From a virus, in the IMG/VR virus record IMGVR_UViG_3300031992_000005, positions 288,001-352,000 of that record: a stretch of DNA of 64,000 nucleotides; one strand, 5' to 3'. Of the stretch, positions 21,857-47,000 are shown in pieces. A program made the position numbers and the translations under genes. Positions within the stretch are counted from its first letter, which is position 1. Each line of letters starts with the position of its first letter. Below the pieces are notes generated by a model. The model made no database searches and was not told the origin of the DNA. It saw only the letters and a program-made list of their open reading frames with translations.

Positions 21857-23624
21857 TGACAAGAGTAATAAGGGATTTTACCTTTACTCTGATGAAGTAC
21901 AATTTGAGAAAGGAGATTTTGTAGTATATGATGGGATTATATACATGCCCAAAGCTAATGTGATGGGAAAAAATCCTGTTGACTACAATGAACTCTATGA
22001 TATATACTTAGGAGAGAACATAGCTGACTTAGAAGGAAAAGACTTTGCATCCTATATAAAAGGTGCAGGTCCAGATAAATTAGTAACAGCATACTCCGTC
22101 GGTAAGATATTAAATTCCTTTATAACAGGTTTTGATGAAAAAGGAATCATAAATAATGAAATTACTGCAGATTCAGTTACTCACCTAAGAGATTATTTCG
22201 GAGAAGAGACCACTTTGCTGGCAAGAACTAATCCACTGGATGCTGTAATGGCTGCCCCAGAACTAAATAACTGCATCTTTAAAGTAGATAGACGTGTAGT
22301 TCAAGATTTGTTTGGGACATCACAATTACAATTCACTAGTAGCTATATTCTTCTTAAGCAGTACACTTACATGGATAGAGAAGCTTCTCCTACTGGTCCC
22401 GCCGAATATATCCGAGTACAAGAACTAGTAGATGAGGAAACAGGTCTTACTAAATGGAGATATTCAACAAGTTCGAATAACTACGATTCAAGTATAGACT
22501 GGAACAGTGTTAATGCTAATGAGAAAGTCCTAGAGACAATCGATGAAATTATTAACTATTATCGTAATAAGCTAATCTCTTTTGAGAAGGAAAAAGCTGC
22601 AATGAAGAGTAATTTCAGATTTGTGGAAGTTCCTTTTGAATATGATAATGCTAATGGTATACTTAATGTTGATCATAAAGCTTTTCCAGGACTATACAAT
22701 AAAACTTTTACTGGAATTGCAGAAAATTACCCAATAACCATTGCAGTCAGTTGTTCTGTTCGAGAGTCTGCAGTAAGAGAAATGGCATCACTTACTGTTA
22801 ACCTTGGGAGAATTATTCAGATGGGAATAGAAAGTACTGAGACCTATAAATTAACTAATACTTGTAGTTTAAGAATTACCTATAAGAGTTCAGTTATTGA
22901 ATTTGCTTCAATTGGAGATTGTAGAGTTGAAAATATATATGCTAGAGGCTATGTAGAAAGTTCTTTAAATGCTACGAATAGTAATTCAATACAGATCAAC
23001 TTAACTTGCTACGACACTGAAGAGGGTCAAAATACCTCTAACAGTTTAATGGGGCATACCTTTTTAATCCCTCTAGACTATGGTTCACTAGGTTTGGATG
23101 AAGATATCATAAGAAGTGGTACTTTGATATTCAAAGGAAGATTAAAGTATTTTAATGATTACTTTAATGATACCGGTTGGGGTGGAGTGGTTCAAACTTT
23201 CCAACTGTCAATACCAATATCTGATATATTTAGAGTCCCAGACGAGGCTACTTCGAATAGCCCATATATTCCAAACTCCGCCGATGGTAGTTTATCTGAT
23301 GGAAATATGACTTGGGTATCTATGATAAATGGAGGTAATAGATTTAATGCTATGGTATTTATTAGTAAAAGCCATGAAGATTCTAGATACGACCAATACT
23401 TAAAGGATGATGATACTGAATATATTTGTATAATACCTACTAAGTATAATCCATATGAACCTACTGATATAACTACTGCAGGTGATTATAGAGTTATACC
23501 AGGAGGATTTCAGATACCTGCAAATGCTAGTGACGTTAATTTGGCGCTAGAACGTGCAAATACAGAAAGAAGAACCATGACTTGTGAAATAAGTACAGAT
23601 CAAGTATATTGTTTACTATCATGA
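21846..23624 (+). CDS. Tail fibre/structural protein with N-terminal CBM5/12-like motif
   Basis: 592-aa ORF with FEKGDFVVYDGIIYMPKANVMGKNPVDYNELY near the N-terminus. Confidence 0.45.
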   Translation: MIINDKSNKGFYLYSDEVQFEKGDFVVYDGIIYMPKANVMGKNPVDYNELYDIYLGENIADLEGKDFASYIKGAGPDKLVTAYSVGKILNSFITGFDEKGIINNEITADSVTHLRDYFGEETTLLARTNPLDAVMAAPELNNCIFKVDRRVVQDLFGTSQLQFTSSYILLKQYTYMDREASPTGPAEYIRVQELVDEETGLTKWRYSTSSNNYDSSIDWNSVNANEKVLETIDEIINYYRNKLISFEKEKAAMKSNFRFVEVPFEYDNANGILNVDHKAFPGLYNKTFTGIAENYPITIAVSCSVRESAVREMASLTVNLGRIIQMGIESTETYKLTNTCSLRITYKSSVIEFASIGDCRVENIYARGYVESSLNATNSNSIQINLTCYDTEEGQNTSNSLMGHTFLIPLDYGSLGLDEDIIRSGTLIFKGRLKYFNDYFNDTGWGGVVQTFQLSIPISDIFRVPDEATSNSPYIPNSADGSLSDGNMTWVSMINGGNRFNAMVFISKSHEDSRYDQYLKDDDTEYICIIPTKYNPYEPTDITTAGDYRVIPGGFQIPANASDVNLALERANTERRTMTCEISTDQVYCLLS

Positions 23625-26393: not shown

Positions 26394-29300
26394 TAGTAGA
26401 ATTTGAGAATAAATTTAAAGTTGAATTAAAAACACCCGGAAATTCTTTTAAGCTCTGTACTTATCGTCTAGGGTCTGGTAATGACATCTCTAACTATTTT
26501 CAGTTTGAGTCCTTATGGGATCCAGATACTAGGATTCTGAATATGGCTCTAGACTTAAGTTTCCTCAGAAAAGATTTAGTTACTGATATTGATAGAACCT
26601 CCGACCTAACTATAGCCGAAAGCTGTACATACATTGATGTCTATTATTCTGATTTAAATGATAATATCATTGGCCTAGCCTTTAAGTTAAAAGGGGATAA
26701 TGAGAATGATCCACTAAACTTATGCTCATTTGAAGCAGGAAGAGAAATAACTGACCCTACTTTCTGGAGGAACATGAACTATATTAACCTAAGACTTCCA
26801 AAGGATACTAAGGCTAATATAGAGACCCTTGAGATTAATGAGAATACTGATTTTCTGGAACAATTAACGTCAACTGAAGGAATCAATACCTTCCTCGTAG
26901 AAGGAAATAAAGAGAATGATACTATATTAACTAAGAACTCTTTTGCCAAACATGTTAGAAACACTATATCTAAAAATAACTTCTCCCCAATGTATTTAGA
27001 CTATTTCGGAGAAAAAGTTCTAGATATAGAAACATTCAAATACTATAAAAAGATAGTAATTACATGTGTAGGTCCAGCAAAAGTAGAAACTCTTGAAAAC
27101 GGTACAGTAACTTGTAGTGTTAATAATAGATCTTCTGTTGCAATTAAGGGTTACTGTTTATTCGATAAGTACCAAGTCATCAATGATGAATATACTCTGA
27201 TTGAAGAAAACTTGAGAGAAGATCTTAGTAAAACAACATTAGTTAGGTTAATCGGTGGAATAGAAACATCTGACAATGTTGGAATAGAAATAGATCAATC
27301 GGGGAAACAGATAAACATTGATGATGTAGATGGAGTTAATTCCGAGATAAATATTGCAGCAAAACTTACCTTCACCAATAAGTTAGGGGAAGAGAAAGAG
27401 GAGATTACTATAGTTTCAAACATAGTACAGATTAATCTATTCTTCTCTTGGTATATCGAATATTTTACTTCATATACTCAAAAGGATGATTCAGGAACAA
27501 GTCATCCAGTAATACTGTTCGACACCACAAAAGAAAATGCTGGCTGGACAGAAGGATATAGAAGTGACGCAGATGAAGAAAATACTCCAGGTACGATCTT
27601 AGTTTATTCTAGTAAAAGAATTCCAGAAACTGGCATTAACGTCACTGCGGATGAGGGTGGTAGCAAACAAGGTATATTCGAGAGTTACTTCAGTGTAGAA
27701 ATCGAAGATAGAGGTTTTAGTGAAGAAGCCGACAAGTTCATCTATGCAATAAAAATAAAAACTAAGCTAGAGAATACGGAGGATATTTGGTGCCCAATTG
27801 ACCCATCAACTAAAGAGTCTACTCTAATCTTAATGAATATCAATATTGGTGAGTCAATACAGGAAGGTGAAGTTTCTGCACAGTTCTATTGCGTTCAAAG
27901 AGTAATCTCTCCATTAACAATAGGTAGAGCTGAGGTTAAGATAAAAGAACAAGACAACAGTAGATCTTATACCTGGATAGAGAATGGAGTTACTGAACTA
28001 ACTTTCGAGAGTGGTCTTGGCTTAACTTCACTGGATGGTTTATTTGTTTGTAACCCTAAGATAGGATATGAGCTTTGGGAAGTTATTTTAGACGATGAAG
28101 CCACTAAGAATCTAATATCTTATAACGTAAAGAATAATATTGAGACCTTTGGTGCAACACCTAAGGAAGATAACGAAATATTCTTCTATTCAAGAAGAAA
28201 CTCCGAGCTTATTGAAAGAACATTAGGAACCATAACCTTTAAGAGAATTAATAACGAAACTAAAAGTTATGACAATAGCTATTGGCAGGATAGGATATAC
28301 GGAGATGAATCTAACTGCGCAACGATAACTTTAAAAAGAGACGCACTAGATTCTGACAGTCTTTGGAATGTTAGAAGTAGTACACCATACTCTTACTCTG
28401 ATCCATTAGAAGGAGTTTCCAGACGACTATATATTTTAAGTGATCAAGAAACTCAAAGTTTTACTATTGAGAGCTCTCAGAGTTTGCTCAATCACCTCAG
28501 TGTTACCCTATGTAATTATGTAGAAACTCCTCCTGAAGGTTCTGGAATATATGCGGAAACATCTGAAGAACGAGAGGGGTTAGTAACAGAATTTAATAAA
28601 TACTTTAGAGTAGGAGAAGCTAATAGTAATAACGGTAATGTAGGTATTAAATATTCTGCTGATACATTATCTGCCACTATTACATTAAAAGCTATTAACC
28701 AAGATGAATACGATTGGCAACCTAAATGTAATAATGGAAAACCAATCCGAGTAAAAATATCCTACGGTTCAGAAGATGAATCTGATCCTCTTCTCGGAAG
28801 AGCTGAAACTTTCTATGCTATCGTTAGACCATCTTTTGCAGGAACAGATATAACATTCAGAGATACTAATTGGACTGATGAAGAGTATCCTATAATGGAA
28901 GAGTATACTTTCCCAGAAACTGGAGGAAATTTGCCAACCTATGTAGTAGCTCCAGTGGAAAGTGGAAGCGTCGGCGTATTTGATCATTGGATCGTTCTAA
29001 AGAAGGATCCCGAAATAACAGTCAAGTTCCAAGGAAAACCAGATGAAGGATCTGTTAACTACTCTTGCCTTCTTATAACAAAAGCACAACAGTCAATTTG
29101 GCCAGCACTTGGTTTACTAACAGAAATTTCAACTAAATCTAAGTCAGAGGATTCACTTTCTAGAGATTTTGATGACTTAGTTATCAGAAGAGCTGCAGGT
29201 GATTATGATAACATAGTTGAGTTTTATAGTGATTGGTTAAATCAAGTTTGTGATCATAGTAGCTCAAGACTCAAGTTAAGCCTTGGAGGAGCCGCTGAAA

Positions 29301-32300
29301 GTAAAACAGTAAAAGTATCCTATGAATGCGGAGGAGAAGACAATGAATCTATAGAAATGCATAATGATTCATTATTACCTCTCAGAGAAATTGGTATTTA
29401 TCGTCTTAGAATTAAGTGTGAGCATCCATTCCGCGTTACCTTAGTAGATAACAATGAAGAGAGAAGTAGTATAGGCTTTTATGATTCAGCCAATGATATC
29501 ATAAAAAGATCTACTATGCTTGACATAAATACCTATGATAATTTCGTCGGTACAGAAGTTGACCTCCTATTCCTAGGTCATGAAAACGACGAAGATAGTT
29601 TCTCTAAAAGTAATCCTACCCTAGAACTAAAAACTAGAATACAAGTAACAAACCTATATGATAATACGTCTGTTAGTTTTGGTTTAGAAAGAACTTACTA
29701 TAAAGTAGTAAGTGAAGAGAATTTTGAAGGATGGAAGGAAGTATTATATTCAAAAATCACTGCAATTGATCCAAGAACCTATAATATTTTCCTACCAGTA
29801 AATTCAAATGATGCTCTTCTTAAGTATACGTCAGCCATAGAAACTTTGAGAACTGTAGCCGGTCATAATGGAATTACTTGGACAAGAACTATAAAAGATA
29901 AGCCCAATTTTTCTAAGGACTTATATTACAGAAATCTTAGTTATGTAAATAGTCAAAATGCTGAAACTAATATTCCTGGACATGGATATAAGTATAATAG
30001 CTTAGATGTATCTGTGGGTCTTATTTCAAATATCGGAAATAGTTATCCAATTAAATGTTTTGGTGAGATTGAGCTAAGATACCAAGGAGACTATCTCGGA
30101 GAATACAAAACATATTACTTTTATAAACTCTTAGATGTTCCTACTGCAACTATAAAAACTACTTCAGAAGATACTTCTATTCCAGGTTTAGTTATTCCTT
30201 ACAATAGGTCAAGTGCAACCGTAGAAATAGAGCTACCTAATAATGGTAATTATAGGCTATTTTTCCAAAGAGCAGAAACGGCAGTAGAAACTGAGATAGC
30301 TAAGGATGATGATACCCTAGTTCCTATTACTGGCTCAACTACGTTAGACTTCTTTCCTATATCCGGAAGAAATAATGCATTCTCTGTATCTATTCAGGAT
30401 ATTAATAATACTGCAATAACTTTTTTAGGAACATTATATGCTAAAACGTTTGTAGATAAAAATAGTTTTGCGATAGATCAAAATGGAGAACCTCTAGTAT
30501 TTTCTGAACAAGAGGAAGTAAATAGAATAGCTGGAGTAAGTACATCTAATATTGTTAGTGTATATTGGGGAAATGGTGAAGGCGTAGCTGATTATATTAG
30601 TGGCAATTACTCATTACTATCCAGACAAGGAGAAACCAGAACCTTTATAATTCATAGAGCGGATGGAAGAATTAGTCAAAGTGAAATTGAAACCATAATG
30701 ACTAATTATAAAAGTATCTTAGGATCATTCTACTTTAATGGACAAGTATATGAAGGCTATAATATAGAGTGGAAAAGATTACTAGATCAAGCTCTCCAAT
30801 GTGGTAATGGAGTAAATCAGATATATACCTATTCAAATAATAATTATATTAAGCTATCAGATAGTATCTATTATGACTTTGATATAAATATTCGAAGAAA
30901 TCCATCTTCGTTTGCAAAGTTTAAATACTTACAAGAATTAAGAGGAAATTATAATCCTGGTGGAGATTCTATTGGACTTAATAAAACAATCATAATCGAT
31001 AACGATAATGATTTAAAGATTCCAATCGCACAGGAATGTTGGGAAAAAGGTATTGTTGCTAGAAGATTGGATGCTAATCGTCAGACTTTTACTTACCTTA
31101 AAAACGATACCACAATCACCACAGGAAGATACTTATACTTGGGAGAACAAAATAAGACTGTTAATATACTAGCTGGTGCTACGGACAAACATGTATACCT
31201 AGAAATATATTCCGTCCAACTCCCTGCAAAAAATATAGATACTACTTACGATGTAGTAGATGTAACAGCAGGAGATGAAGAAGGAAGACTTCTCCGAAGT
31301 ATCTTAAGTGAATACGGAGACGGATTGACAATAGAGTATGATGAGTATATGGGTATTGAAGTTGAAAAGTCTGTTTCTGCATTTACTGAAGTAAGTGATA
31401 ATGATTATAGAATATACTTAGATATCACTCTTCCTGAAAATAACTCTTTCTATAATTATGGTGATGATGAAAGTGAGTATGAAACTATTACTGACAGCTC
31501 CTATGGACCCTACGAGATAAGAGTGACTGATGGAGATTATAATAGTGTAACTTACTATATCTACGTCAGCCCTAGGAAAGAACTTAGCTTAGACTTATAT
31601 CAAGGACTCGCAGAGTATGATGATGTAGATAATTACTATATTGGACCTAATGACATAAAGGTTAAAACAGTCTTACTCAGTTCAAACGGAGATTTGTTCA
31701 GTATTATAGGTGAAAATATCAAGAATCATGAAATTAAGTTATTTTCCCAAGATTACTTCTATGCAGTTACTAATGCCACTGACGATATGATCAGGCGGGG
31801 ATTTTCAGTAAAATGTGATGAGCTAAGGGATGATGAATCATCTCCTTTCTGGAAATCACCTTATCCTGGTGAATATAAGTTCAAATATAATGTAACCATA
31901 CCTACTGAACAAAGTGTCACAGACCCATATGACCCAAATACTTTCTACGCTTACGACGAAAATGTTAGTGGTAATCTAAAGGAGAAAAAGATATCATATA
32001 CTCTTTTCCCTAACAGAGGCGTAAATGTAGACTTAAATAATAGGTTTGAATATGAATTCGTAAGTGAATATACAGTAGGTAGTGATAGAAAAAGAATTTA
32101 TAAAATAAAGTCAGTCAATCTTGGAGTTAGTAAAATATGGTCTCCATATAAAGAAGACTTATACTCTTCTATAGAAGTTCCGAAAGTAGATAGTAATGGC
32201 ATTATTGCTGCAAGACGTACTGGTACAGCTCCTGACTATACCTACAACAATGAGGTAGAAATAGTTGATGGAAATCCAACAAATAAGAAAGAAGAATTTC

Positions 32301-33559
32301 TTACTGGAATAATTGGTACAACAATAAGAATCCAAAAACAAGGAAGTGGAACATACATGCCAGTGACAAATGGAATTTATAGAATGAAATTAACCCTATC
32401 AATCGGAAATGCCAGAAAATCTAAGGGAGTGAGCCTTTGGGGTTATCATGGACACTGTAATATTCGACTTTCTACTCCAAGATCTCCATTCTTAAGTGTG
32501 AAACTCTATTCAGATACAATGTCTGCTCCTGGAATATATAACCTACTACCTAGTCCAATAACGGAGAAGTATGTATTATATGAACATGGATTAGATACTA
32601 ATAGTTCTTATAATGGGGTTCCACTAGGAGATCCAAGCGAATTTAAAAACTTCTATCAACCTGATTTTGAAACAGTATTATCTGCGAATTCTGACATATA
32701 CACAGACACTCGTAATGGAACGGAAGTATATTGTATAGATATGGATAATACTATTACTATTAACTATACTGCAAGTAGTACTTTCAAAAACCGAATCTTC
32801 TCTAAATATGGATTCCTGGGTGGATTCTTAATAAACAAGGTGACAAGAATTGAGTTCATTCATTATAGTGGTAGTAACACAGGTAGTTTCAATCTCTACA
32901 ATAACTCTACATTATTCTACGGAGATACGCATATAGAAGAGCGTATTCACTATGTTCAGGGAAATTCTAAAACTGGATTAGTACTAACCCCACTTAGCCC
33001 TACTACTGGATTAAGCGAAAGATATACATTATATCACACGGGGGATGATCCTACAACAGTAGTAAGAAGCCTTCCTGCAGGTGAGTTGTTCTTTGCGATG
33101 ACTAAGAAAATTTACCGAGATCACCTAGAAAATACAACCTTAAGGAGGAGAGTTAGAAGTGATAATCCTTGTACCATTAATTTCCTTAAGTGTTTCAAAT
33201 CATATGATCCAGGGATAGTTGTTATAAATGACGCAAATCCTACAAGTCCATCAGATAATTTTGAAGAAACCTATACCTCGGCCATAATTAATGGTAGAAA
33301 TGGTGACTCTGAATATGGAACAATCTACATTAGAGACATTATCACTGAGAAGAATGTAGGTACTAAGGTCTATGATGAATTAGGTCGTCCAGGAATTTTC
33401 TTAGATATTCCTAAATCAAAGTTTACTAACATAGGTAATAATATCTACGAATACGTAACAGATGAAATATATCTTAGTGATTTTATAACATTCAATAATG
33501 GTGATACATATAGTACACCTAAATCTCCAATAAGAATAAAAATACGAATTAAACTATAA
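26390..33559 (+). CDS. Giant structural protein (2389 aa), function unknown
   Basis: Uninterrupted 7.2-kb ORF in the structural operon with an ATGA overlap to the upstream gene. I recognise no catalytic motif. Confidence 0.7.
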   Translation: MIVEFENKFKVELKTPGNSFKLCTYRLGSGNDISNYFQFESLWDPDTRILNMALDLSFLRKDLVTDIDRTSDLTIAESCTYIDVYYSDLNDNIIGLAFKLKGDNENDPLNLCSFEAGREITDPTFWRNMNYINLRLPKDTKANIETLEINENTDFLEQLTSTEGINTFLVEGNKENDTILTKNSFAKHVRNTISKNNFSPMYLDYFGEKVLDIETFKYYKKIVITCVGPAKVETLENGTVTCSVNNRSSVAIKGYCLFDKYQVINDEYTLIEENLREDLSKTTLVRLIGGIETSDNVGIEIDQSGKQINIDDVDGVNSEINIAAKLTFTNKLGEEKEEITIVSNIVQINLFFSWYIEYFTSYTQKDDSGTSHPVILFDTTKENAGWTEGYRSDADEENTPGTILVYSSKRIPETGINVTADEGGSKQGIFESYFSVEIEDRGFSEEADKFIYAIKIKTKLENTEDIWCPIDPSTKESTLILMNINIGESIQEGEVSAQFYCVQRVISPLTIGRAEVKIKEQDNSRSYTWIENGVTELTFESGLGLTSLDGLFVCNPKIGYELWEVILDDEATKNLISYNVKNNIETFGATPKEDNEIFFYSRRNSELIERTLGTITFKRINNETKSYDNSYWQDRIYGDESNCATITLKRDALDSDSLWNVRSSTPYSYSDPLEGVSRRLYILSDQETQSFTIESSQSLLNHLSVTLCNYVETPPEGSGIYAETSEEREGLVTEFNKYFRVGEANSNNGNVGIKYSADTLSATITLKAINQDEYDWQPKCNNGKPIRVKISYGSEDESDPLLGRAETFYAIVRPSFAGTDITFRDTNWTDEEYPIMEEYTFPETGGNLPTYVVAPVESGSVGVFDHWIVLKKDPEITVKFQGKPDEGSVNYSCLLITKAQQSIWPALGLLTEISTKSKSEDSLSRDFDDLVIRRAAGDYDNIVEFYSDWLNQVCDHSSSRLKLSLGGAAESKTVKVSYECGGEDNESIEMHNDSLLPLREIGIYRLRIKCEHPFRVTLVDNNEERSSIGFYDSANDIIKRSTMLDINTYDNFVGTEVDLLFLGHENDEDSFSKSNPTLELKTRIQVTNLYDNTSVSFGLERTYYKVVSEENFEGWKEVLYSKITAIDPRTYNIFLPVNSNDALLKYTSAIETLRTVAGHNGITWTRTIKDKPNFSKDLYYRNLSYVNSQNAETNIPGHGYKYNSLDVSVGLISNIGNSYPIKCFGEIELRYQGDYLGEYKTYYFYKLLDVPTATIKTTSEDTSIPGLVIPYNRSSATVEIELPNNGNYRLFFQRAETAVETEIAKDDDTLVPITGSTTLDFFPISGRNNAFSVSIQDINNTAITFLGTLYAKTFVDKNSFAIDQNGEPLVFSEQEEVNRIAGVSTSNIVSVYWGNGEGVADYISGNYSLLSRQGETRTFIIHRADGRISQSEIETIMTNYKSILGSFYFNGQVYEGYNIEWKRLLDQALQCGNGVNQIYTYSNNNYIKLSDSIYYDFDINIRRNPSSFAKFKYLQELRGNYNPGGDSIGLNKTIIIDNDNDLKIPIAQECWEKGIVARRLDANRQTFTYLKNDTTITTGRYLYLGEQNKTVNILAGATDKHVYLEIYSVQLPAKNIDTTYDVVDVTAGDEEGRLLRSILSEYGDGLTIEYDEYMGIEVEKSVSAFTEVSDNDYRIYLDITLPENNSFYNYGDDESEYETITDSSYGPYEIRVTDGDYNSVTYYIYVSPRKELSLDLYQGLAEYDDVDNYYIGPNDIKVKTVLLSSNGDLFSIIGENIKNHEIKLFSQDYFYAVTNATDDMIRRGFSVKCDELRDDESSPFWKSPYPGEYKFKYNVTIPTEQSVTDPYDPNTFYAYDENVSGNLKEKKISYTLFPNRGVNVDLNNRFEYEFVSEYTVGSDRKRIYKIKSVNLGVSKIWSPYKEDLYSSIEVPKVDSNGIIAARRTGTAPDYTYNNEVEIVDGNPTNKKEEFLTGIIGTTIRIQKQGSGTYMPVTNGIYRMKLTLSIGNARKSKGVSLWGYHGHCNIRLSTPRSPFLSVKLYSDTMSAPGIYNLLPSPITEKYVLYEHGLDTNSSYNGVPLGDPSEFKNFYQPDFETVLSANSDIYTDTRNGTEVYCIDMDNTITINYTASSTFKNRIFSKYGFLGGFLINKVTRIEFIHYSGSNTGSFNLYNNSTLFYGDTHIEERIHYVQGNSKTGLVLTPLSPTTGLSERYTLYHTGDDPTTVVRSLPAGELFFAMTKKIYRDHLENTTLRRRVRSDNPCTINFLKCFKSYDPGIVVINDANPTSPSDNFEETYTSAIINGRNGDSEYGTIYIRDIITEKNVGTKVYDELGRPGIFLDIPKSKFTNIGNNIYEYVTDEIYLSDFITFNNGDTYSTPKSPIRIKIRIKL

Positions 33560-36048: not shown

Positions 36049-39000
36049 ATGGCAGAGGATACAAAATTACAAGGAACGAACATTGCCTCAAGAATTGTAC
36101 CATTCGATTCTCAGGATACCTTTCCTACCCACGAAGCCTTCTATGGTAGAGGTGGTTATAGAACAGTAGAGGACATTGCAAGCCGAGATGCCATTCCAGA
36201 ACAACGACTGGAAGAGGGTATGCTTGTGTACTGTAAAAATGACCCTACTGGCGTTCATACTTATAGATATATGGGTATGAAAGAAGGAACTAATACACGT
36301 ATTTGGAAAGAATTGAAGCTAGAGGGAACTGGAGTGCCTATCTATACTAATGCCAACGTCGAGGAGATGAGAGAAGCTGGTGTTAACGTAGATGAAATGG
36401 ATTACATAACTATTCCAGACGACGATGATATTGAGGGTGAGGTAACAAATAAAACTTATGAAACCACACAAAATGGTACTTATGTTGACATTCTATTCAA
36501 GGCACTTAGAGCATTACAATCCGAGGTTGCAAAACTTAAAAACTCGTTCCTTTATGGTATTGAGTCTTATAGCGGAACTGATACAGCAATGGCGGCTATA
36601 AGTGAAGAACTTGAAGAAGCCATAGCAGAAGAACCTCTTTGGGCAGTAGAAGAAGATGGACTTAGCAGCGTGTATGATTTGTTTGAAGCAGCCCCAGAAG
36701 CAATTCCAGCTGAATTTGAAGCAAGAGAGTCTAGTACTGTAGTTGCAACAGAAGATCATACCGGCGGACGATACTACGTTACAATCGACAGCCCTATAAA
36801 TATTCCAGTCACATGGAATGCGATCGAAAGAAGTGAGATAGGTAAAATAACCGATAGTAAACTATTTCTCTATCTAACTACTACTGGAGAGAATAATGCG
36901 GGGCTAAAATACGTTGTACATATTCAAGAGGACAGATTAGATGGAACCTCTAGAGAAATAGACTTCGACCTAAGACCATTAATAACTAGTGGTAGTATTA
37001 CATCTAGTAGTAAGGTATACAATACTTTAATTGTTATCAGTAGAAAACAAAAAGTAGCTACTTCTGCCAAAACAGATGAGGAGGGAAATATTTTACCACC
37101 TACTACCGAATATTATGGAAGTAATTTCATTTGGATAAGTGTATCAGACCCAGTTACAAATTCAACCATAAAGGAGGGATATTGGAAAGATAATACCATT
37201 TACGATGATCTTACCCAAGTCGATGAAGATACAGTATTTTACGATGGCATCCTTTCCTTAAGATCCGTTGATTTTTATAGTACTGTAATCTCTAAATTTC
37301 ACCTCTACTCCAAGTATCAAGATTTCACTAAAGGCGTAATACCTAGTAAACCATCAGATGATACTTGGAAATTTAAAGCTGCCCATATTACTATTAGGTC
37401 AGTTGATACTTTTGAAACATTAAAAGAGCTCAAAGATAAATTATTAAATAATGAATTAATATTAGTAGAGAGCTCATATACATTATATATAAAAATAGAT
37501 AATAAACTTGTTGCTATCGGCAGTCAATCTTCTCCAGGTGGAGGAGGGTCTAGCGAAGACGGAGGTAGTAGCGAAGATGAAGATACTGGTATGACAAAAA
37601 CAGAAATTATTCAATGGCTAAGTGAAAACGGAATAGTCGTTACAGAAAATGGAGGAGATCTTGTTCTTAATGATGTTGCGGACATAACATTTAAGCATGA
37701 GGGTACTGGGAAAACCTTCAAATTTACCGTTAATGAAAACGGTGAACTTGAAAGTCAGGAAATCCCCGATAAAACAATAAGCGAAGATTTAAAAGATTAT
37801 ACTCTCAAGGGAGACATGAATCTTCGAGGTTTTATTGCACAATATAGACTAAGAAGTAATGTCAATCAGACAGGTAATGCTAAACTAAAGAGTGATAGAT
37901 TAAAAATTGGTTCATTCTATGCACCTCTTAGTGGAGATGTTGTTCATGGATGTACTCACTCATTTATTGAGTTAGAAAATACTTCGGATATAGATATTCC
38001 ATTGAAAGGAATTTATCTACATGTAACTAAACCCGCGATTAATTCCTCAGGTGACGTAGTCCAAAACATATATAGTCTAGAATTAACAGGTATTATTCCA
38101 TCTGGAGGAACTTATTTAATAAGAGGCGCAAGACATGCAGAAGATGATGATGCTAATGCTTTTATAAAAGTAAAAACTTACGATCAAGAGTGGTATGTAG
38201 ACAGCCCTACTGATAGTGATAAGAAAGAATTACTTTCTCTAGAGATATTAGAAGATATTAATTACGGAGCTTCAGGAAATCCATATGGTCACGGTATTTG
38301 TCTAACTTATGGAAACTCTGGTTTTACTGGAGGAGATGGTGATAAAGTAGGACCTAGAACACAATTAGTTCGCGGAACTATAGCAAACGAAAAGTTTGAC
38401 AGTGTTACAATCATTGAATCCGGTGCATTGAAAAACAAAGAGGACTACCCTTATTGCTATCATAAAAACTTCATAGATGGTATATGTTACTATTTTGCAG
38501 TAAAATCAGGTAACTCTCCATATTGGGCAACTAATGCTATCGGTAAAAATGACGACAAGAGGACAATGTCTAATGTTATGTATAGAAATATGTTCGAACT
38601 TGATCCAGCTAATCAAGCCTATCAAGCATTGAATTCAAAAGATAGTTCAAGAAGAAGATGGGATAAGAACGGAACCGATGTTCAATTACTGGACTTATCT
38701 AAAGAATATATTTCTTTCCCAAAAACAGAAGACATCTACCCTTTATCTAAGTTTACTCCAAAAGCTTCTTGGGAACATCGCAATGTATGTACAGATAAAT
38801 CTAAGCTTGATCCTAACAAACCAAATATGGTAACTTGCTCCTTTGGTATTAATATCTATACCACTAGATGCTTTAACTGGATCTCCTTAGGATATTTTGA
38901 TGAATACATTTGGATAAAGAAAACGAAGGTTGGAAATAATTCTGTTAATGAGTCATGGAAAAGATTTGAATCTTACAAGGAAATAAGTGAGGAAACAGCT

Positions 39001-40995
39001 AACGCCAGCACTTATCCACGTAGAAAGGAATTTAACGTGACTGTAAACAATGCTATATATGCCAGAATAACTGGAAGATTTCCTGCTGACAATAGTTTCT
39101 ATACCGCACATAAGGTTATCATTGATATTACAGAAAATCCAGTTAGTACCAACCCAGAGGAGTATACCTATATAGTAGGTAGAGCAGATAAGAACGGTAA
39201 CCCTGATCCAGAACATACTTCTAGAGAACAAACCTTTACTTTATACCCAACTAGTTATACAACCAAGATCTATCAGATTACTGACCAACAGGGATTTCAC
39301 TGGATAGAGTATCAAGTCTGGGCAGCAGCTGCAGATAAGCTCAATGAAGTAATAGCAAGCGAAGTAGCAAGTTCCAATATAATACCTATTCTTGTTAATA
39401 CTGGTGATATGACTCAGAATGGTACTCGTATTAACGAATGGTTCGATTATTATCAGGCTGGTAGAAATCTATTCGATCACCTAGAACAAATGAACTGTGT
39501 GGGTAATAATGACTTATGTAACACTGATATAAATGCGCTAGGTACTGGAGATGATGAAGGTAAATCTAACTCCTACTATTTTCATGTATTCTATTGCTAT
39601 GAAGTAGATGTTACTAATAATATTCCCGTTCCACTATGTTCAGGTAGGAATGATGAATTCGATCCTAAATATATACCATCCCTATATTACTTTGATTCAA
39701 CTACTGATAGATTTTTAGTTATAAATAGTGAACTTACATCAGCCACTTCAAAGAACTGGTTTAAATTGATTCCTGACAATAATAGTAATACTAAATACAT
39801 CAATATTTATACAGGTTGGGAATTTGATACTAGTAATCCAGTAGTTCAGCATTACTATGGAGATGATTTTGTCCCTGTGTATAAAATAGTCTGGAATATA
39901 TTAAATGATGCAAGAACTAAAGGAAAAAAGACTATAGCAATCTGTCATGAAATGCCATTTACAGTTATTACCCATGCATCACTTGCCACAGGATCTGGTA
40001 ATGAATTAGTAGATAGATCAATTAGCTCTTCTAAACTTGTAGGCAGTCACTTAAACCAGATACATGCAAAAGAGTTAAGTAGCTCAGAGGGTAATGGTTA
40101 TACAATGAAGGGTACTTACTGGTTCAGTAGACTATTAGAATACTTTGACGTTAAATTAGTTATAGGTGGTCATAAGCATACATATGCATGTACTTATCCT
40201 ATTAGAGAAAACTATAATTACCTAGTAGATGGTAATATGGTAAATAGTTTAACCAATAAGATGGTAATGACGGAAGATACTCTAAAAGAGGATCCAATGA
40301 TCGTATTCGATGGCCAAACATCATCAAGTATAAAAAGAAATTTAACTAGATTCCCATATATAAAGAAAGATGATTTCGTAAGTCCTACGAATGATTCTAA
40401 TCACTTCTTCCCTTCTACTAATCTATACTCAGTAGGCGGAGGAGTAGCTTATGTAGAGGACCTTAACGTAAATTCAAATAATTTTGTTGGAGGAAATTTC
40501 TATAAGATAGTTCAGGGTCAATTCGTTGCAGCAGACACCTTTACGCAGGGTACAACTTATTACAAAAAGTTGACTGATTTTGATACTTTTGATGGTATTG
40601 TATATTTCATGTGTCAAGCTACTGGATATAAACTAAAGTCTAATAAAGAATTGCCATCAATTTTCCAAACCTTCTCAAAAATAATTCCAAAGACAGATAA
40701 TGCAGCTGGAGGAGATTCACCTAATAATAATCAATTACGTCCAATGTTTGCTAAGATAACGGTACAAAATGGTTCTTACAGTATAACCCTTTGTAGACTA
40801 GAAAACATTATGACTGAAAGAGAAGATCAAGGTTATAAATTTACTCAGACTGCATATGGAAAATCAGCTATCAAAATTAGTAATCTAGTAGTTAATTCTA
40901 CAAATAATTATGGAGATTGGATAGACGAAGACAATACTGATTATTCTACTCCAGAAAGTAGAGTTCTATTTAATAATAGTTATTTTACTGATTAA
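36049..40995 (+). CDS. Giant fibre-like protein (1648 aa) with lamin-tail-like (LTD) and metallophosphoesterase-like modules
   Basis: N-terminal fibre motif VEDIASRDAIPEQRLEEGMLVYCKND...WKEL. Gly/Ser/acidic linker SSPGGGGSSEDGGSSEDED. LTD-like segment at about 37890-38140: HSFIELENTSDIDIPLKGIYLHV...IPSGGTYLIRGA. Phosphoesterase-like motifs at about 39260-40210: GDMTQNG, VGNNDL, CHEMPF, GGHKHTY. Confidence 0.55.
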   Translation: MAEDTKLQGTNIASRIVPFDSQDTFPTHEAFYGRGGYRTVEDIASRDAIPEQRLEEGMLVYCKNDPTGVHTYRYMGMKEGTNTRIWKELKLEGTGVPIYTNANVEEMREAGVNVDEMDYITIPDDDDIEGEVTNKTYETTQNGTYVDILFKALRALQSEVAKLKNSFLYGIESYSGTDTAMAAISEELEEAIAEEPLWAVEEDGLSSVYDLFEAAPEAIPAEFEARESSTVVATEDHTGGRYYVTIDSPINIPVTWNAIERSEIGKITDSKLFLYLTTTGENNAGLKYVVHIQEDRLDGTSREIDFDLRPLITSGSITSSSKVYNTLIVISRKQKVATSAKTDEEGNILPPTTEYYGSNFIWISVSDPVTNSTIKEGYWKDNTIYDDLTQVDEDTVFYDGILSLRSVDFYSTVISKFHLYSKYQDFTKGVIPSKPSDDTWKFKAAHITIRSVDTFETLKELKDKLLNNELILVESSYTLYIKIDNKLVAIGSQSSPGGGGSSEDGGSSEDEDTGMTKTEIIQWLSENGIVVTENGGDLVLNDVADITFKHEGTGKTFKFTVNENGELESQEIPDKTISEDLKDYTLKGDMNLRGFIAQYRLRSNVNQTGNAKLKSDRLKIGSFYAPLSGDVVHGCTHSFIELENTSDIDIPLKGIYLHVTKPAINSSGDVVQNIYSLELTGIIPSGGTYLIRGARHAEDDDANAFIKVKTYDQEWYVDSPTDSDKKELLSLEILEDINYGASGNPYGHGICLTYGNSGFTGGDGDKVGPRTQLVRGTIANEKFDSVTIIESGALKNKEDYPYCYHKNFIDGICYYFAVKSGNSPYWATNAIGKNDDKRTMSNVMYRNMFELDPANQAYQALNSKDSSRRRWDKNGTDVQLLDLSKEYISFPKTEDIYPLSKFTPKASWEHRNVCTDKSKLDPNKPNMVTCSFGINIYTTRCFNWISLGYFDEYIWIKKTKVGNNSVNESWKRFESYKEISEETANASTYPRRKEFNVTVNNAIYARITGRFPADNSFYTAHKVIIDITENPVSTNPEEYTYIVGRADKNGNPDPEHTSREQTFTLYPTSYTTKIYQITDQQGFHWIEYQVWAAAADKLNEVIASEVASSNIIPILVNTGDMTQNGTRINEWFDYYQAGRNLFDHLEQMNCVGNNDLCNTDINALGTGDDEGKSNSYYFHVFYCYEVDVTNNIPVPLCSGRNDEFDPKYIPSLYYFDSTTDRFLVINSELTSATSKNWFKLIPDNNSNTKYINIYTGWEFDTSNPVVQHYYGDDFVPVYKIVWNILNDARTKGKKTIAICHEMPFTVITHASLATGSGNELVDRSISSSKLVGSHLNQIHAKELSSSEGNGYTMKGTYWFSRLLEYFDVKLVIGGHKHTYACTYPIRENYNYLVDGNMVNSLTNKMVMTEDTLKEDPMIVFDGQTSSSIKRNLTRFPYIKKDDFVSPTNDSNHFFPSTNLYSVGGGVAYVEDLNVNSNNFVGGNFYKIVQGQFVAADTFTQGTTYYKKLTDFDTFDGIVYFMCQATGYKLKSNKELPSIFQTFSKIIPKTDNAAGGDSPNNNQLRPMFAKITVQNGSYSITLCRLENIMTEREDQGYKFTQTAYGKSAIKISNLVVNSTNNYGDWIDEDNTDYSTPESRVLFNNSYFTD

Positions 40996-41000: not shown

Positions 41001-44000
41001 ATGAAAAGACCTAATAAAAATAGTGCCACAAATGGTAATATCGTTTTCGACGACGATATTACCATGACTGGTACGAATAAAGCGTTTGGGAAAGATCTCC
41101 ATAGCGCGATGGAGAACCTTTGGTCAAGAACAGCTAAATTAGAAAATTACCTAAAATGGATCTATAAATACGGCGGCGTAGGTGGAACCGGCGGTGGAGG
41201 AGAGACTGCTACATCATATACAGTCTATGCAGAACTTAATCATAGGAAAGTTGTAGAAGATCCTACTGCATTTATCAACCTAGGTTCATCAGGTACTTTT
41301 CCACTTTTAATAAAAATTTCAAAACCAGGTGGAGCATCTTATAAAGTAAACTGTACTTTTACAGATAATACTGGATCTATTATAAACACTATTAATGAAA
41401 CATTAAACCTGGATAATAGTTATACGTTAGAAAGAGTTGTAAATATTTCTAAAAATGGTGTACTAAATATAAAAGTTACTGATAGTATCTATAATGAAAC
41501 TACACCACTCTCCACTAGATATATTACTGACCCATACAGATTTACGGGAGATTTAATAAATAATAGTGGTCGTGCATACTCAAATGAAATTTTTACGTCA
41601 GATATATTATCCAATGGACTATATCTAAGACTAAATTACCAGATATCAGTAGCGACTGAAGTATCCTATAAATTAAAAGTAACAACTCCTAAGTTAACTT
41701 TTAATAGCGAAGGCTTCACTGCGATGGAAGACTTAATAGTATCCAATACAGAGGAGGGTGATTATATAATTGATATTATACAGTTTCTGAGAAAATTTGA
41801 TTACGGCCTTACCGAGTCTAACTCAGGTAATTATAGTATTTCTGTCGAACTTCAAACAAAGATAGTTGGAGATCTAGAAACAAATTCTTATACTCCACTA
41901 AAGACGCCAATCTCTTTTACTATCGTTCCAAAAACACTATACCTACTAGTACAGTCTACTTCAGGTACACTATATCAAGTAGAACAAGAACCTGACTCAG
42001 TATCTACTGACGATCTATTCTCACCTGGTAGTATAACTTTTAAAGTTAAACCTTATTTTGAAAACGTTATAGGAAAAAGCTGTACTATCGACTATAAATT
42101 AGGAGATGAATTCGAATGGCAAACTATTTCAACTAACCTAAGAGATACCCAACAAATAACTATATATTCTACCAGACCTGGAGAGAATAGTATATCATTT
42201 GTTCTGAAATACGATAATAAAAAATATCCTACCCAAGAGCAATCCAATGTTGGTGAAGGTACCTACTATTTTTATATAAAAAATTCTACCTTTGACGGAG
42301 GCTGGTGGCATCAATTTGAGAAAAATACAGATAGACCTTTCTACGATGACCTAAACCATTACTTCAAAGTAACAGAGTGGTCACCAGAATTTAACCCGTT
42401 TAATGCTACGTTCGGTAGAAATCCAATAAAACAAACAGTAAATAAATCTCCTGTAACTTTAACGAATTTAACCTGTCCTACTGGATCTGACGGTTTTAAT
42501 ACGATAGTTAATATTGGTATTGAGTATAATACTATAAATGAAGATGGTGCACCAATACTAAAAATAACTGCATATGACGATACTGAATTAACACTTTATC
42601 AAAACAGAATTACCCTTGGGGCAAATTCCATTGAAGACGATAGATTATTCATTCCAAAAACAGACTACAGCTCTTTTACTGGATTAAATAATACAGAGGA
42701 CTATCACTTAATTTCTATTGTAAGTAGGCAAGTAAAGAAGTTAGGAAATACTGATAATCGTGGTAGAGAAGTAATTATTTACATAGATGGAGTCATTGAG
42801 GCTTGTTTTAAAACATTCCTTTATAGTCCAGGAACCCCATCAAATAACTTAACCGTAAAGGATATAAGTCTATATAGCGTCAACGCAAATTTCAACTTAT
42901 TTGATATAGCATACTTCAGTCCAATCGAGTCTAAGGTAAGTACGGAATATTATATTCCAGAAGATGTTACAATTTATCAATATTACTTGAAATATAAGGA
43001 AACACTCTTAAGCAAAACACTTACTGAAGAGGAAATTAACTTGCTGACTTACTACGACAATATTGATTTTAATCCAGAAAACGGAGACATTTTCTGTTCT
43101 GAGGATGCTATGAATAATATAGCGAGAAACCTCAATGTCCCTGTAATGGCTATTCTAGTAGATGATAATAAAAACGGTAATTATAAAGATTTATTAGGTG
43201 GCTATTATCTAGAGTCGAGTACAGAAGAACTTGAAACAAAAGCTACTTTAAAGTGGAGTGGATTAAAGGGAAAAACTTCGTTAACTGATATAAGCTTTCC
43301 AAATAGAACCATAAGTAACACAGGTAGTTATATAGACTGGACAAGTAATATCCATTTTTATGTAAAAATACAGGGTTCATCTACAAAGGGATATCATATT
43401 AAGAATTACACGCTTACCTTAAAAGATGATGAAAACCTATATATTCCGTTGTTTTCACCAAACTTTAAAAATAACGACACAACTACATTTCTCCCTGAAC
43501 ACTCATTTACTCTAAAAGCCGACGTAGTAGATTCCAGTCACTCTAATAATACTTCTATTGGAAATTTTGTTAATGACATCACTACTAAATTCAAAACAAG
43601 CCCTACTTCAGTGGATGATGCCTTCTCTGGATACATAAAAAACTGTTTGACAGGTTTTCCTTTTCTAATTTTCATGAAATTCATCGACCCAAACAAGTCG
43701 CCTGATGCTCAAGATGAAAATTACTACTATCATGGAGTATATAATTTTAACTTAGGTAGAGAATCCGAGTATAACCTGGGCTATAAAGATTACAATGTCT
43801 TCTGTGATAGTAACGGAAAAAGTATACTAGAAGATGCACCAGATTCTGGTGGATTTTCATTTCACATGGTCACTAAGTCCAGTAGTGTTGTAAAAAATGG
43901 AGTAATTACTGCAGAAATTCAAGGAAACAGCTCATTTCTAGACTTTTCACAATTTGATGAATCATTATTGTTCCAGAATGACAGTGTCTCTGACGAAAAC

Positions 44001-47000
44001 GTAACTACCATGTTCGGTAAAATTACAGATGAAAATCCGGACGTATCCTATATCAGAGGAGAAAACCTACAAAATCAAGATGCAAGAAATATCTTACAAA
44101 GATTTGTAGAAAAAGTAACCTATGCGGGTGGTTATGTCTTCACTCAGCTAAAGAAAACCTTTAGTGACGATGGGAGTGCAGGAGTCTTATATGGTTACGG
44201 ATCTAAGCCCCCACAAGGTTATAAAGCAGTTGGTAAGATAAAAGTTTGGAATGAAGATTTAGGTGAAATAGAAGAAAAAACCCTTCCATTAAACCAAGTC
44301 CCTAACTATCGACACCAATTTATTAGAACAGTCAGTGGAATTACGCCAAAAGCTGGTTTAACCAGACCAGGTACACTAAATGACCTCATGGATTTGGTTA
44401 GAAAAGACGAAAATGATCCTGATGCTGGAATTCCTTTACTAGACTTTGACAGCGTAAGTGAATATTATACTATCTGTATGGCATTTGGTTTGATAGACTC
44501 TGTCCAAAAGAATCTTACATTAAAAACATGGACCGCAGATAAGGAGAGCGGACTTGGTACTTTTTATGTAGCATTCTACGACATGGATACTTGCTTAGGA
44601 ATTGATAATGCTGGAAAGAAAGTGAACTACACTGCATTCTCTGATTATTGGACAAAGAATGAATCAGAATCAGATGGAACAAGTACTAGTGAAACAACCT
44701 CAAGTGGAACCGTAAGTTATAAAACAATTACACCAATTTCAGCTACAGTCTACAGAGACTATTCCCCTTCTGGAGGAGAATACTTCGACGTTGCTAGTTC
44801 CTACCTATTTGCGATACCTAAATACGCAACTTATATTGCAGGAAAACTTAATCTTAATGCAAGCGATAGTGCGTTTACAGAAAAAATTACAAACTGGCCA
44901 AGGCAACTCTGGGAAAAGTGGAGATCGAGAAGAAATCCGTCGGATCATAAAATAGGTTGTCTAGAATCCGCTGACTATTTTATAAAGACTTATTTCTCTA
45001 ATAACTTAGGATCAGTTGGCATTCCATTGATTAATGCAAATTACAGAGCAAAATATTTAGTTCAATTGTACTATTCAGGTGATACTACAAATTCTAAAGA
45101 TGAACTTGGTAAGTTTAATGGAACACGCATCGCTAGAGTAAAAGAGTGGTTAAATAATCGTCTTCACCTCCTAGATGCATATTTTAACATAGCAAGAGGT
45201 GTAAATAATCCTATAATGTTCTATAGAGAATGTAATGAGGAAATAGATGGAGAAATGCAGACATTCTATAAGTATACTTCTACGGAAGAAGATACTAGCG
45301 CAGACCATTATATGTCAGAACCTACTATTTCAGAATACACGTCCGCTACTAACCCAGATGTTTATATAAACTCGGATATTTTTGATAAGCTTTCTCTACA
45401 ATCAAGTATACCTTTTGTCGTTACTGTACGTGCTAAAGAAAACTCACCTCTTATTATAACATGTGCAAACTGGACGAAGAGATATCTTATTGGTGGTAAT
45501 AATTATTATCAAATCCCAGTCCCTGTATCAGGAACCCAGGCATATAGATTATTAGGTTCAAAAAACTGGACCTATATGGACAGTATTAATGGATTTCACT
45601 TAGATGGTACATTTTATATAAACACTCAATATATAGATCAACTTGTGGGAGATGATAATTCATCAGAGGCGAAAGAACTGACCTTTGATAATAGCGCTAC
45701 CGATAATATCCTTATGCCTTCATTGAAGACAATCAGTTTAACTAGTCCTAAATATAAAGGTACACTTAAATTAGTTGGTACAAACTATACTAACTTAGGT
45801 ACAATTGATTTAAGTAATTCTAGAATAGGTTTAAACATGCAAAACACTACTTGTACGGAACTTAATCTATCTAACGTAAATGGGTCAAATAATCAGTATA
45901 ATATAGTGGATTGTCTAAATCTTTCAAAAATTACAATCGTGAGTGCCTATATGTCCTCGCTAATAATAAAGCCTATCCATCCAGATATTATTACTAAAAA
46001 CTGTGAAACAAGCTTTGGTAAGGTAACTAGTAGTAATGTAATTAACCTAGCAAATATTACACCTACTACTTCCAATAATCAAAACACTCCTTTTGGAAAA
46101 ACAGGCTCTGGATTTTATCTAAAAAATACTCATATTCGTGAAATAAATATATCGAATACTAAAATTAATGAAGATAGATCCAGAATAGAGATTGATGGAG
46201 ACGACACCTTGTATAGCATAACGATTGCAGGATTTTCGGTGGTTGTGATAAAGAATTGTCAGAATCTTAATAAGATAAACATATCCGACCCTGAAGCAGG
46301 TATTGGTGGCGATAAGCTGAGAAGACTATGTATTCAAAATTGTGGTAATGCTGGTACAGACTTAACTATAAATTCTACAGAAAGAGGACATCTGAATTTA
46401 ACGGATTTCTCTGACCTAAACTTTGTGAATTTTAGAGAATGTACCAACATAACTAGCATTGAGTTTAGCAATACAGGGGTTTATCTGGACTATGACGCTT
46501 TCTATTCCGACAGTAATCTAAGTACCATTGATGGAAAAGCCTATATAATAGGTACTACTACCACTGGAACAAGGATCAGACCTACCTTCTATCTTTGTAA
46601 AAACTTTAAACTAACGAAAAGTAATGGAACTACTTGCTGTGATTTATTTGTCATAGAACAAGCAGTATCTCTTAATAGTACATTCTCTATTGGAAATAGT
46701 ATTTCAAAAGAAGGCGAAGGAAAAATAACACGAACTTTGGCTAAAACATTTATAGAAAGAATCCCAACAAATAACAACATTACCGATATAACCAACATGT
46801 TTTGTGGAAATAGAATTGAGTATAATGAAACACTATTAGTTAGTGACATAAAATCTACGAAAAACTACATAGACATGTCGGTTTTTAAGAAAGTAACAAA
46901 CGTAAGTGGGGCTTTTAACTATAATTTGATTAGTGCTTGGCATCCTAAATGGTTCTCATTCGGAGCAGACGTCGATACCATTAATTCCTTTGAAAACTAC

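Follow-up and report, generated by a model that had tools for sequence, protein, structure and literature searches.

A giant phage tail-module protein with a purple-acid-phosphatase-type metallophosphoesterase domain and a probable lamin-tail-like domain

We analysed a 64,000-nucleotide (nt) stretch of viral DNA (positions 288,001 to 352,000 of the IMG/VR virus record IMGVR_UViG_3300031992_000005; the window, hereafter) and, precisely, the uninterrupted open reading frame (ORF) at 36049-40995 on its plus strand, which encodes a protein of 1648 amino acids (aa). This protein carries a metallophosphoesterase domain with the two-domain fold of the purple acid phosphatases (PAPs) and with a near-invariant set of candidate metal ligands; it belongs to a family that appears to be phage-only, and its gene lies in a tail module, immediately upstream of the gene of a giant CotH-like protein. 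We propose, with a probability of about 0.55, that it is a modular fibre- or spike-like tail appendage which hydrolyses phosphoesters of the host envelope or matrix and acts together with the CotH-like partner. The protein does not represent a new kind of protein, being a divergent newcomer in a phage family already labelled phosphatase or metallophosphoesterase. What this analysis adds is the PAP-type two-domain assignment, the invariant non-canonical signature, the probable lamin-tail-like domain (LTD) and lectin-like modules, the phage-only distribution and the strict pairing with the CotH-like partner. The layout of the protein was as follows (all features on the plus strand, with the evidence in brackets).

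36049-40995, +: whole ORF, LTD and PAP-type metallophosphoesterase protein of the tail module, 1648 aa
36133-36423, +: N-terminal alpha/beta domain (aa ~29-125), putative fibre attachment or anchor (PHROG 23630, N-terminus comparison, model)
36466-36558, +: conserved helix (aa ~140-170), probable trimerisation element (conservation, model, PF20010 in homologues)
36646-37323, +: variable jelly-roll beta-sandwich (aa ~200-425), lectin- or carbohydrate-binding-module (CBM)-like, putative glycan-binding (model and Foldseek)
37846-38253, +: probable LTD with immunoglobulin (Ig) fold (aa ~600-735; sub-threshold Pfam and Foldseek)
38794-39243, +: fibronectin-type-III (Fn3)-like domain (aa ~916-1065), equivalent of the PAP N-terminal domain (Foldseek and alignment to phage G gp352)
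39244-40368, +: metallophosphoesterase catalytic domain (aa ~1066-1440; Pfam Metallophos, motif conservation, PAP fold match)
40369-40995, +: C-terminal beta-rich region (aa ~1441-1648; conservation profile and secondary structure of the model)

The metallophosphoesterase domain and its metal site

The Pfam family Metallophos (PF00149) was matched along its entire length by aa 1073-1379 (E = 9.6e-5; 23.3 bits, the cut-off being 21.5), and the relatives of the protein scored from 20.6 to 51.8 bits with the same family, the distant homologue gp352 of Bacillus phage G reaching 49.3 bits. An AlphaFold model of aa 590-1648, built from 49 sequences, had a predicted local distance difference test score (pLDDT) of 84.3 and a predicted template-modelling score (pTM) of 0.88. 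When this model was compared with the PDB by Foldseek, the first 19 matches were all PAPs (E 7e-15 to 4e-10), among them lupin PPD1 (3zk4, 7e-15), wheat purple acid phytase (6gja, 1.3e-11) and kidney-bean PAP (1kbp, 5.6e-11, with a template-modelling (TM) score of 0.63 normalised to the target); the kidney-bean and sweet-potato PAPs together lay at about 1e-10 to 1e-11, with target-normalised TM scores of 0.62-0.64. These alignments covered both PAP domains, that is the Fn3-like N-terminal domain and the catalytic one. Weaker (3.4e-4) was the match to Listeria Lmo2642 (2xmo), a cyclic-nucleotide phosphodiesterase whose PDB entry is an unannotated structure, and nucleases of the Mre11/SbcD type were not among the close matches. 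The family of the PAP N-terminal domain, Pur_ac_phosph_N (PF16656), gave no direct Pfam match on the window protein; aa ~916-1160 align to the part of gp352 that scores 49.1 bits with it (cut-off 30). The NCBIfam scan of the 1648-aa protein returned no match, and a sequence search of the PDB with the whole protein and with family profiles returned nothing significant.

An earlier note, made from the letters of the DNA and the translated ORFs, had proposed that a lamin-tail-like and a metallophosphoesterase-like domain are combined in one giant protein, and had guessed at a phosphoesterase of calcineurin-like or purple-acid type. Pfam, Foldseek and conservation bear out the combination, its lamin-tail-like part being probable. 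The fold search of the proposed metallophosphoesterase region returned the PAP fold, with PAPs as the top matches and with an Fn3-like domain preceding the catalytic one, so the guess of a purple-acid type was right as well. All the motifs that the note quoted were found in the ORF where it had placed them, namely FIELEN at aa 639 (nt 37963), GGTYLIRGA at aa 686 (nt 38104), GDMTQNG at aa 1119 (nt 39403), GNNDL at aa 1152 (nt 39502), CHEMP at aa 1299 (nt 39943) and GGHKH at aa 1373 (nt 40165).

Mapping by motif order gave D1079, D1120, Q1123, N1153, H1300, H1375 and H1377 as candidate metal ligands, and their conservation was evaluated in two sets of 124 and ~250 homologues. The ordered motifs D / GD / GN / H / GHxH are all present and in the correct order, with TDQQGF, GDMTQNG, GNND, CHEMP and GGHKHTY as the signatures of the family. 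The conservation of the single positions was the following.

D1079: 246 of 246 sequences
D1120: 253 of 254 sequences
N1153-N1154-D1155: 253 of 254 sequences
H1300: 249 of 249 sequences
H1375 and H1377: essentially all sequences

Six ligands (D1079, D1120, N1153, H1300, H1375 and H1377) are hence near-invariant over about 250 sequences which share only 33-59% identity, and this argues for purifying selection on the metal site. Had the metal ligands varied among homologues, the idea of a phosphoesterase would have lost its ground; their conservation was near-perfect in both sets. Chance resemblance of the motifs was also considered as an explanation and was rejected, being ruled out by conservation and fold. 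The signature is retained in phage G gp352 (as VTDQQGW, NTGDIAQN, VGNNDL and GHHHCY), so that it must be old and selectively maintained.

The site departs from the canonical one at three positions. Motif I, from nt 39283, is [ST]-D1079-Q-Q-G-F-[H/N]-W and holds no canonical DxH; it is an aspartate motif of the PAP-like GDxG type. The earlier note had found the first DxH unclear while recognising the order of the other motifs: the order stands, no DxH is there, and the D-QQGF aspartate motif takes its place. We considered H1084, the residue after the Phe, as the canonical DxH histidine and rejected it, given that this position varies (His in 164 sequences, Asn in 49, Thr in 10, Tyr in 5 and Asp in 4). 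At the position of the PAP tyrosine ligand (GDxxY) the family has Gln in 244 of 253 sequences (~96%) and Tyr in 7, and these Tyr variants support the mapping of Q1123 onto the PAP ligand. Finally, GNH[DE] is replaced by GNND (253/254), a loss of the general-acid His which may go with substrates that have good leaving groups.

The phage domain and the PAPs (1kbp, 3zk4, 6gja) are thus alike in the Fn3-like plus metallophosphoesterase layout and in the motif order D / GDxx[Y] / GN / H / GHxH, and the GHxHxY ending of the phage family resembles the GHVHAYER of PAPs. They differ in that PAPs use the Tyr as an Fe(III) ligand and have GNH[DE], so that the seven-ligand set of the PAPs is incomplete in the phage family; moreover, identity is only 8-12%, the phage motif I has one extra residue (DQQG) and the phage domain is embedded in a 1648-aa fibre-like protein.

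Outside the canonical metallophosphoesterase motifs, a near-invariant acidic, Gly-rich loop that is specific to the family, LGTGDDxGKSN (aa 1164-1174, 39538-39570), follows shortly after GNND; it could be an extra metal- or substrate-binding loop.

Attachment and adhesion domains

Upstream of the enzyme, the Pfam family LTD (PF00932) was matched at aa 638-697 with 17.3 bits, below its cut-off of 34.3. Matches to the same family were found at the same relative position in 11 of the 13 family members scanned (17-30 bits, all under the cut-off), the relatives scoring 18.6-29.9 bits and gp352 29.9. Foldseek matched this segment of the model to the Ig domains of lamin B1 and lamin A/C (3jt0, 1ifr, 6rpr and 7crg) with a probability of 0.92-0.97, at E values of 2e-3 to 2e-2 and target-normalised TM scores of ~0.4, in a class of folds, the Ig-like ones, that is common. 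By sequence, the family profile of the LTD region found no lamin, and its only PDB match was a spurious one to an integrase. We consider the LTD assignment as probable: the proposal that the region around GGTYLIRGA is an LTD is favoured by the recurrent sub-threshold matches and by the lamin fold match, and weakened by scores that stay below the Pfam cut-off.

At the N-terminus, aa 29-118 match PHROG 23630 (function unknown), which is the only PHROGs match of the protein, and residues 7-65 share 54% identity with the very start of Tunturi_5 gp29, a 1469-aa 'tail fiber protein' of a Tunturiibacter phage. The same N-terminal module opens large proteins of DAC phages, of the T5-like Vibrio phage pVp-1 and of huge uncultured phages, and its distribution fits a swappable module for fibre attachment. 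The 'typical fibre anchor motif' announced for this N-terminus is thus borne out only in part: the N-terminus is common to an annotated tail fibre, but no curated fibre-anchor family matched it. A fold search of the N-terminal half, too, found no solved fibre anchor and returned lectin-like jelly rolls only. This half was modelled separately (pLDDT 71.5), and a small alpha/beta domain at aa ~36-125 was confident, with a pLDDT of 82-91 for aa 40-90.

Two further elements follow. The first is a predicted helix at aa 145-169, which lies in the best-conserved stretch of the N-terminal half (mean column identity 0.78); Pfam Collagen_trimer (PF20010) was matched at the equivalent position in homologues only, one of which scored 28.2 bits against a cut-off of 23.8, and the helix (aa ~140-170) is a probable trimerisation element. 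The second is a jelly roll at aa ~200-425, modelled with a pLDDT of ~90 and being the least conserved part of the family, for which Foldseek returned legume lectins, the lectin-like Hc-N domain of botulinum neurotoxin (BoNT) and CBM11/22 (E 3e-4 to 1e-2).

In the conservation profile of the protein the enzyme domain stands highest, and the N-terminal half is variable. The C-terminal region holds a lineage-specific insertion (aa ~1451-1520) and a conserved block, YxMCQAxGYKLxSNKELP.

Phage family, two-gene cassette and tail module

The core formed by the LTD and the metallophosphoesterase was compared by tblastn with 50,697 phage genomes and matched 33 records at E = 0 to 1e-47, with more than 90% of the core covered. 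Full-length homologues at 35-59% identity are found in crAss-like phages, Lak phages and metagenomic phage contigs; near full-length ones at 36-40% identity are those of crAss-like cr124_1 and cr7_1 (annotated 'phosphatase') and of all 14 Lak megaphage records. Homology is confined to the core (aa ~617-1415) in crAss002 gp19, cr52/60/107/109/113 and IAS virus, all of them recorded as 'phosphatase', and in a Bohxovirus, while the 178-kb Bacteroides phages of DAC16 type have both the first ~75 residues and the core in common with the window protein. Phage G gp352, annotated 'metallophosphoesterase', is a distant homologue. The best database match of the window protein had 59% identity over partial length only.

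The 'phosphatases' of Crassvirales (cr124_1 gp20, cr7_1, crAss002 gp19 and IAS virus) and the proteins of Lak and DAC-type phages are, hence, direct homologues: cr124_1, cr7_1 and Lak share 36-40% full-length identity with the window protein, and in the catalytic region the crAss, Lak and DAC-type homologues reach 47-50%. They have the same active-site signature, the same position in a structural module and a giant CotH-like/leucine-rich-repeat (LRR) gene next to them. They differ from the window protein by lineage: crAss002 and cr109-type proteins have only aa ~617-1415 in common with it, with N-terminal parts that change from lineage to lineage, and insertions such as that at aa ~1451-1520 set it apart from these homologues.

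At least 206 relatives were found in a large protein database, and a HMMER scan of 1.84 billion cluster representatives returned only 400 clusters at E <= 1e-3, which marks the family as compact and separate from generic metallophosphoesterases. Among 185,579 prokaryotic species, with one genome for each, there were only 10 loci, all on phage-sized contigs of metagenome-assembled genomes (MAGs); the family thus appears phage-only, and a cellular or prophage origin was rejected on the same count. The MAG contigs with the cassette are ~101 kb long in bins named 'Segatella copri' and 157 kb or 360-400 kb long in other bins. As to hosts, the labels of these bins are Segatella copri, Anaeroplasmataceae, Erysipelotrichaceae and Bacilli; the contigs are probably phage contigs swept into bacterial bins, with labels that are unreliable as a host assignment. 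No catalogued phage matched at the DNA level when 14 kb of the window were compared with phage genomes by megablast, and the nearest relatives by protein are on contigs as long as ~400 kb, so that the window most likely derives from a large uncultured phage.

On genetic code, crAss-like cr124_1 (11854-23510) has in-frame TAG codons, 24 in the phosphatase gene and 60 in the CotH-like gene, both of which terminate at TGA, in agreement with the reassignment of TAG that has been reported for some crAss-like phages. Read with the standard code, the genes of the window contain no in-frame stop.

Immediately downstream of the phosphoesterase gene lies the partner gene.

41001-49652, +: downstream partner gene, giant CotH-like/LRR protein of 2883 aa (BLASTP and cassette adjacency)

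By BLASTP, this partner is related to crAss002 gp20 (3e-18) and DAC16 gp86 (2e-21). Its tblastn matches fell in exactly the same 35 of the 50,697 phage records as those of the phosphoesterase core, and in 35 of these 35 it is immediately downstream and on the same strand; this strict pairing is new in the present analysis. Depositors labelled the partners 'spore coat protein/CotH kinase/internalin-like'. Pfam, PHROG and NCBIfam gave no match on the 2883-aa protein of the window, and a search for CotH on it was negative by Pfam (E <= 1), by phmmer against the PDB and with a 4-sequence profile; on the crAss002 and DAC16 partners CotH was not confirmed directly either, only LRR and ConA-like lectin matches having appeared. 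Phage G gp353, on the other hand, has CotH by Pfam (60.3 bits, E = 3e-16) together with Laminin_G_3 and LRR domains, and aa 757-932 of the window partner align to gp353 inside its CotH region. The CotH-like label of the window partner is taken from depositor annotation and from transitive homology to gp353. CotH-family domains in phages have been described as unstudied (PMC8008677). Three blocks of the partner, QGSSxxxxxKN, TLKADVVDSxHxNN and FYDMDTxxGxxN, do not vary between the four diverse members compared.

The phage G pair gp352/gp353 is the most distant member of the same cassette. It keeps the LTD, Pur_ac_phosph_N and Metallophos domains with TDQQG, GDxxQN, GNND and GHxH in gp352, and CotH, a ConA-like lectin domain and LRRs in gp353; it differs in the length of gp352 (866 aa), in an N-terminal element of Mtd_N type (25.1 bits), in its Gram-positive host and in having no obvious tail module around it. 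The pair is flanked, within 4139-17384 of phage G, by a GGDEF diguanylate cyclase (gp350), a GIY-YIG endonuclease and an SbcD-like nuclease.

The window gene itself sits in a co-directional block of large genes. Upstream, 6896-12490 (+) encodes a protein of 1864 aa with a phage-tail lysozyme domain (PF18013, 99 bits) and an M23 peptidase domain (72 bits), probably a tape measure or tail-associated lysin with which the tail module starts. There follow a run of ORFs of 200-640 aa, then ORFs of 2389, 237 and 559 aa, the phosphoesterase ORF and the 2883-aa partner. A 375-kb phage contig has the same local order (2005, 237, 499, 1585 and 2690 aa, then an Amidase_3 gene), and the crAss-like homologue belongs to the structural block, where it comes downstream of the genes for the portal and the major capsid protein. 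The giant 2389-aa protein of the tail module (26390-33559, +), whose syntenic counterpart on the 375-kb contig is the 2005-aa one, had no Pfam or PHROGs match.

Farther along the window the strand switches at 58128-62920 (-), with a reversal of GC skew at ~58 kb, and eight ORFs of ~180-230 aa lie there in a row. They include four tandem paralogues (60025-62298), 36-47% identical to one another (E 1e-18 to 1e-28); between the first two of the row there is a weak relationship. A tRNA scan of the window found none.

Proposed function and its alternatives

We propose that the exchangeable N-terminal attachment domain and the trimerisation helix would fix the protein to the tail, as part of the virion, and that the variable lectin-like jelly roll and the lamin-tail-like Ig domain would hold it on the host surface or matrix. 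The Fn3-like domain and the PAP-type binuclear domain would then hydrolyse phosphoester or phosphodiester (possibly pyrophosphate) links during adsorption, acting together with the obligatorily adjacent giant CotH-like/LRR protein. The target would be a component of the host envelope or of the extracellular matrix, the candidates being phosphates of lipopolysaccharide (LPS), lipooligosaccharide (LOS) or lipid A, head groups of membrane phospho- or sphingolipids, and extracellular DNA (eDNA). This component is probably conserved rather than strain-variable. In fact, across Crassvirales, Lak, DAC-type and jumbo phages no part of the protein is as well conserved as the enzyme domain, and the N-terminal half is variable, which points to a conserved target rather than to a strain-specific capsule and argues against a classical strain-specific depolymerase.

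Virion enzymes that cut phosphodiester-linked surface polymers are known from the baseplates of staphylococcal phages, which carry teichoic-acid hydrolases of GDPD type; the concept is the same and the fold unrelated (a TIM-barrel GDPD versus a metallophosphoesterase). Among bacteria, LTD plus calcineurin-like phosphoesterase is a recognised cell-surface architecture (PMC11488536). ShfP of B. subtilis (LTD, Ig and calcineurin-like domains) requires its active-site residues and, in part, its LTD, and glycerol is released, probably from lipoteichoic acid; PhoD, with Fn3 and calcineurin-like domains, cleaves teichoic acid (PMC11488536). ShfP-like enzymes resemble the window protein in joining an LTD, beta-sandwich adhesion domains and a calcineurin-like domain in one polypeptide, and their predicted logic is also alike, that is to adhere to the surface matrix and cut phosphoesters in (lipo)teichoic acid, eDNA or lipid head groups. 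The likeness is one of architecture: ShfP has a canonical NHD997-999 motif and a signal peptide, whereas the phage family has NND, a fibre-type N-terminus and a distribution that appears confined to phage genomes.

It can reasonably be inferred, as the earlier note did, that a virion-borne phosphoesterase could attack surface phosphodiester polymers or extracellular nucleic acid. Where the note overstated its case was the novelty of a phosphoesterase in a tail protein: public records already label the homologues of crAss-like phages 'phosphatase' and that of phage G 'metallophosphoesterase', and a 2023 review of Crassvirales reports lectin, glycosyl-hydrolase, phosphatase and CHAP domains in the annotations of tail-spike subunits, from which it infers that the spikes bind receptors and act as depolymerases (PMC10136315).

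We favour a phosphoester-hydrolysing tail appendage because of the enzyme fold, the ligand conservation, the adhesion domains, the tail context, the cassette in 35 of 35 records and the precedent of ShfP and PhoD. Several points weigh against it. Both the His of GNH[DE] and that of the canonical DxH are absent from the family. Activity falls sharply when the former is mutated in lambda phosphatase, Mre11 or PAPs, and hydrolysis by a GNND-type domain could be slow, specialised or lost. The putative ligand geometry follows from the order of the motifs, not from model coordinates, and sequence likeness to solved metallophosphoesterases is marginal, the best match of the catalytic family profile in the PDB being Dbr1 at E ~0.15 (in an alignment that pairs CHEMP with Dbr1 motif IV). 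The phage G cassette is among non-structural genes. Finally, literature searches on crAss and Lak tail phosphatases, on calcineurin-like domains in crAss-like phages and on gp352/gp353 proteomics found no activity, substrate or virion data, but only the one-line mention in the review.

An unlikely alternative is a pseudo-enzyme or binding head, which would keep the metal site and recognise a phosphate-bearing ligand (LPS or lipid A phosphate, phosphoglycan or phospholipid head group) without turnover. The replaced general-acid His, the change of the PAP Tyr to Gln and the variable motif-I His all agree with it, and so does the place of the domain towards the C-terminal end of a fibre-like protein, which is the usual site of receptor-binding heads. 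Such heads, however, are normally the most variable part of a fibre, and here the domain is the most conserved one; six ligands and many second-shell residues are invariant across a wide divergence that includes phage G, as is more typical of a working catalytic centre; and other metallophosphoesterases are active without this His, such as LpxH (GNRD) and YfcE (GNCD).

Decidedly unlikely, in our view, is a virion nuclease for extracellular DNA, in which the LTD would bind DNA and the metallophosphoesterase cut it, helping the phage through biofilm, mucus or an eDNA-rich matrix. LTDs are fused to extracellular nucleases such as ExeM, where removal of the LTD lowers DNA degradation in vitro (PMC6085458), and are predicted to bind eDNA or analogous polymers (PMC11488536); a universal substrate would also explain why the enzyme domain is so strongly conserved and why the cassette occurs in phages of Bacteroidota as well as of Bacillus. 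The nuclease domain of ExeM, however, has the endonuclease/exonuclease/phosphatase (EEP) fold and not that of a metallophosphoesterase (PMC6085458). The closest folds of the phage domain are, moreover, those of PAPs, phytase and PPD1, which act on small molecules or diphosphonucleotides, Mre11/SbcD-type nucleases not being close, and the constant pairing with a CotH-like/LRR/lectin giant would be left unexplained.

An ejected, intracellular effector, which would dephosphorylate host proteins or degrade nucleotide signals as a counter-defence with the CotH-like kinase as co-effector, is highly improbable, since the surface-adhesion architecture of the protein (fibre-type N-terminus, trimerisation helix, lectin-like jelly roll, LTD and Fn3), the LRR and ConA-like lectin domains of the partner and the position after baseplate-like genes suit a tail appendage better, notwithstanding the description of Crassvirales as ejecting cargo proteins (PMC10136315), the weaker structural match to Lmo2642 and the nucleic-acid enzymes and GGDEF cyclase around the phage G cassette.

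The reading as a phosphoester-hydrolysing tail appendage allows an extension that we hold only as a speculation, and quite an unlikely one: the LTD plus PAP-like phosphoesterase and its CotH-like partner, of an atypical kinase fold, might be a two-enzyme, tail-borne phosphoryl-transfer module which crAss-like, Lak, DAC-type and other jumbo phages share through horizontal transfer. It would edit a conserved component of the envelope or matrix during adsorption or entry, adding or removing phosphate or cutting a phosphodiester or pyrophosphate. If this were true, it would be an entry chemistry of a kind that has been described for no phage.

Of the phages in the human and animal gut, Crassvirales and Lak phages count among the most abundant and the largest, and little is known of the way in which they recognise and breach the envelope of their hosts. 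The family considered here is one of the few tail-module proteins common to these otherwise unrelated lineages, and cultured carriers (crAss002, DAC16 and phage G) make it experimentally tractable. Its study could reveal a possibly conserved receptor or substrate, and could clarify a branch of the metallophosphoesterases with an unusual site, in which GNND and a Gln in place of the Tyr are found.

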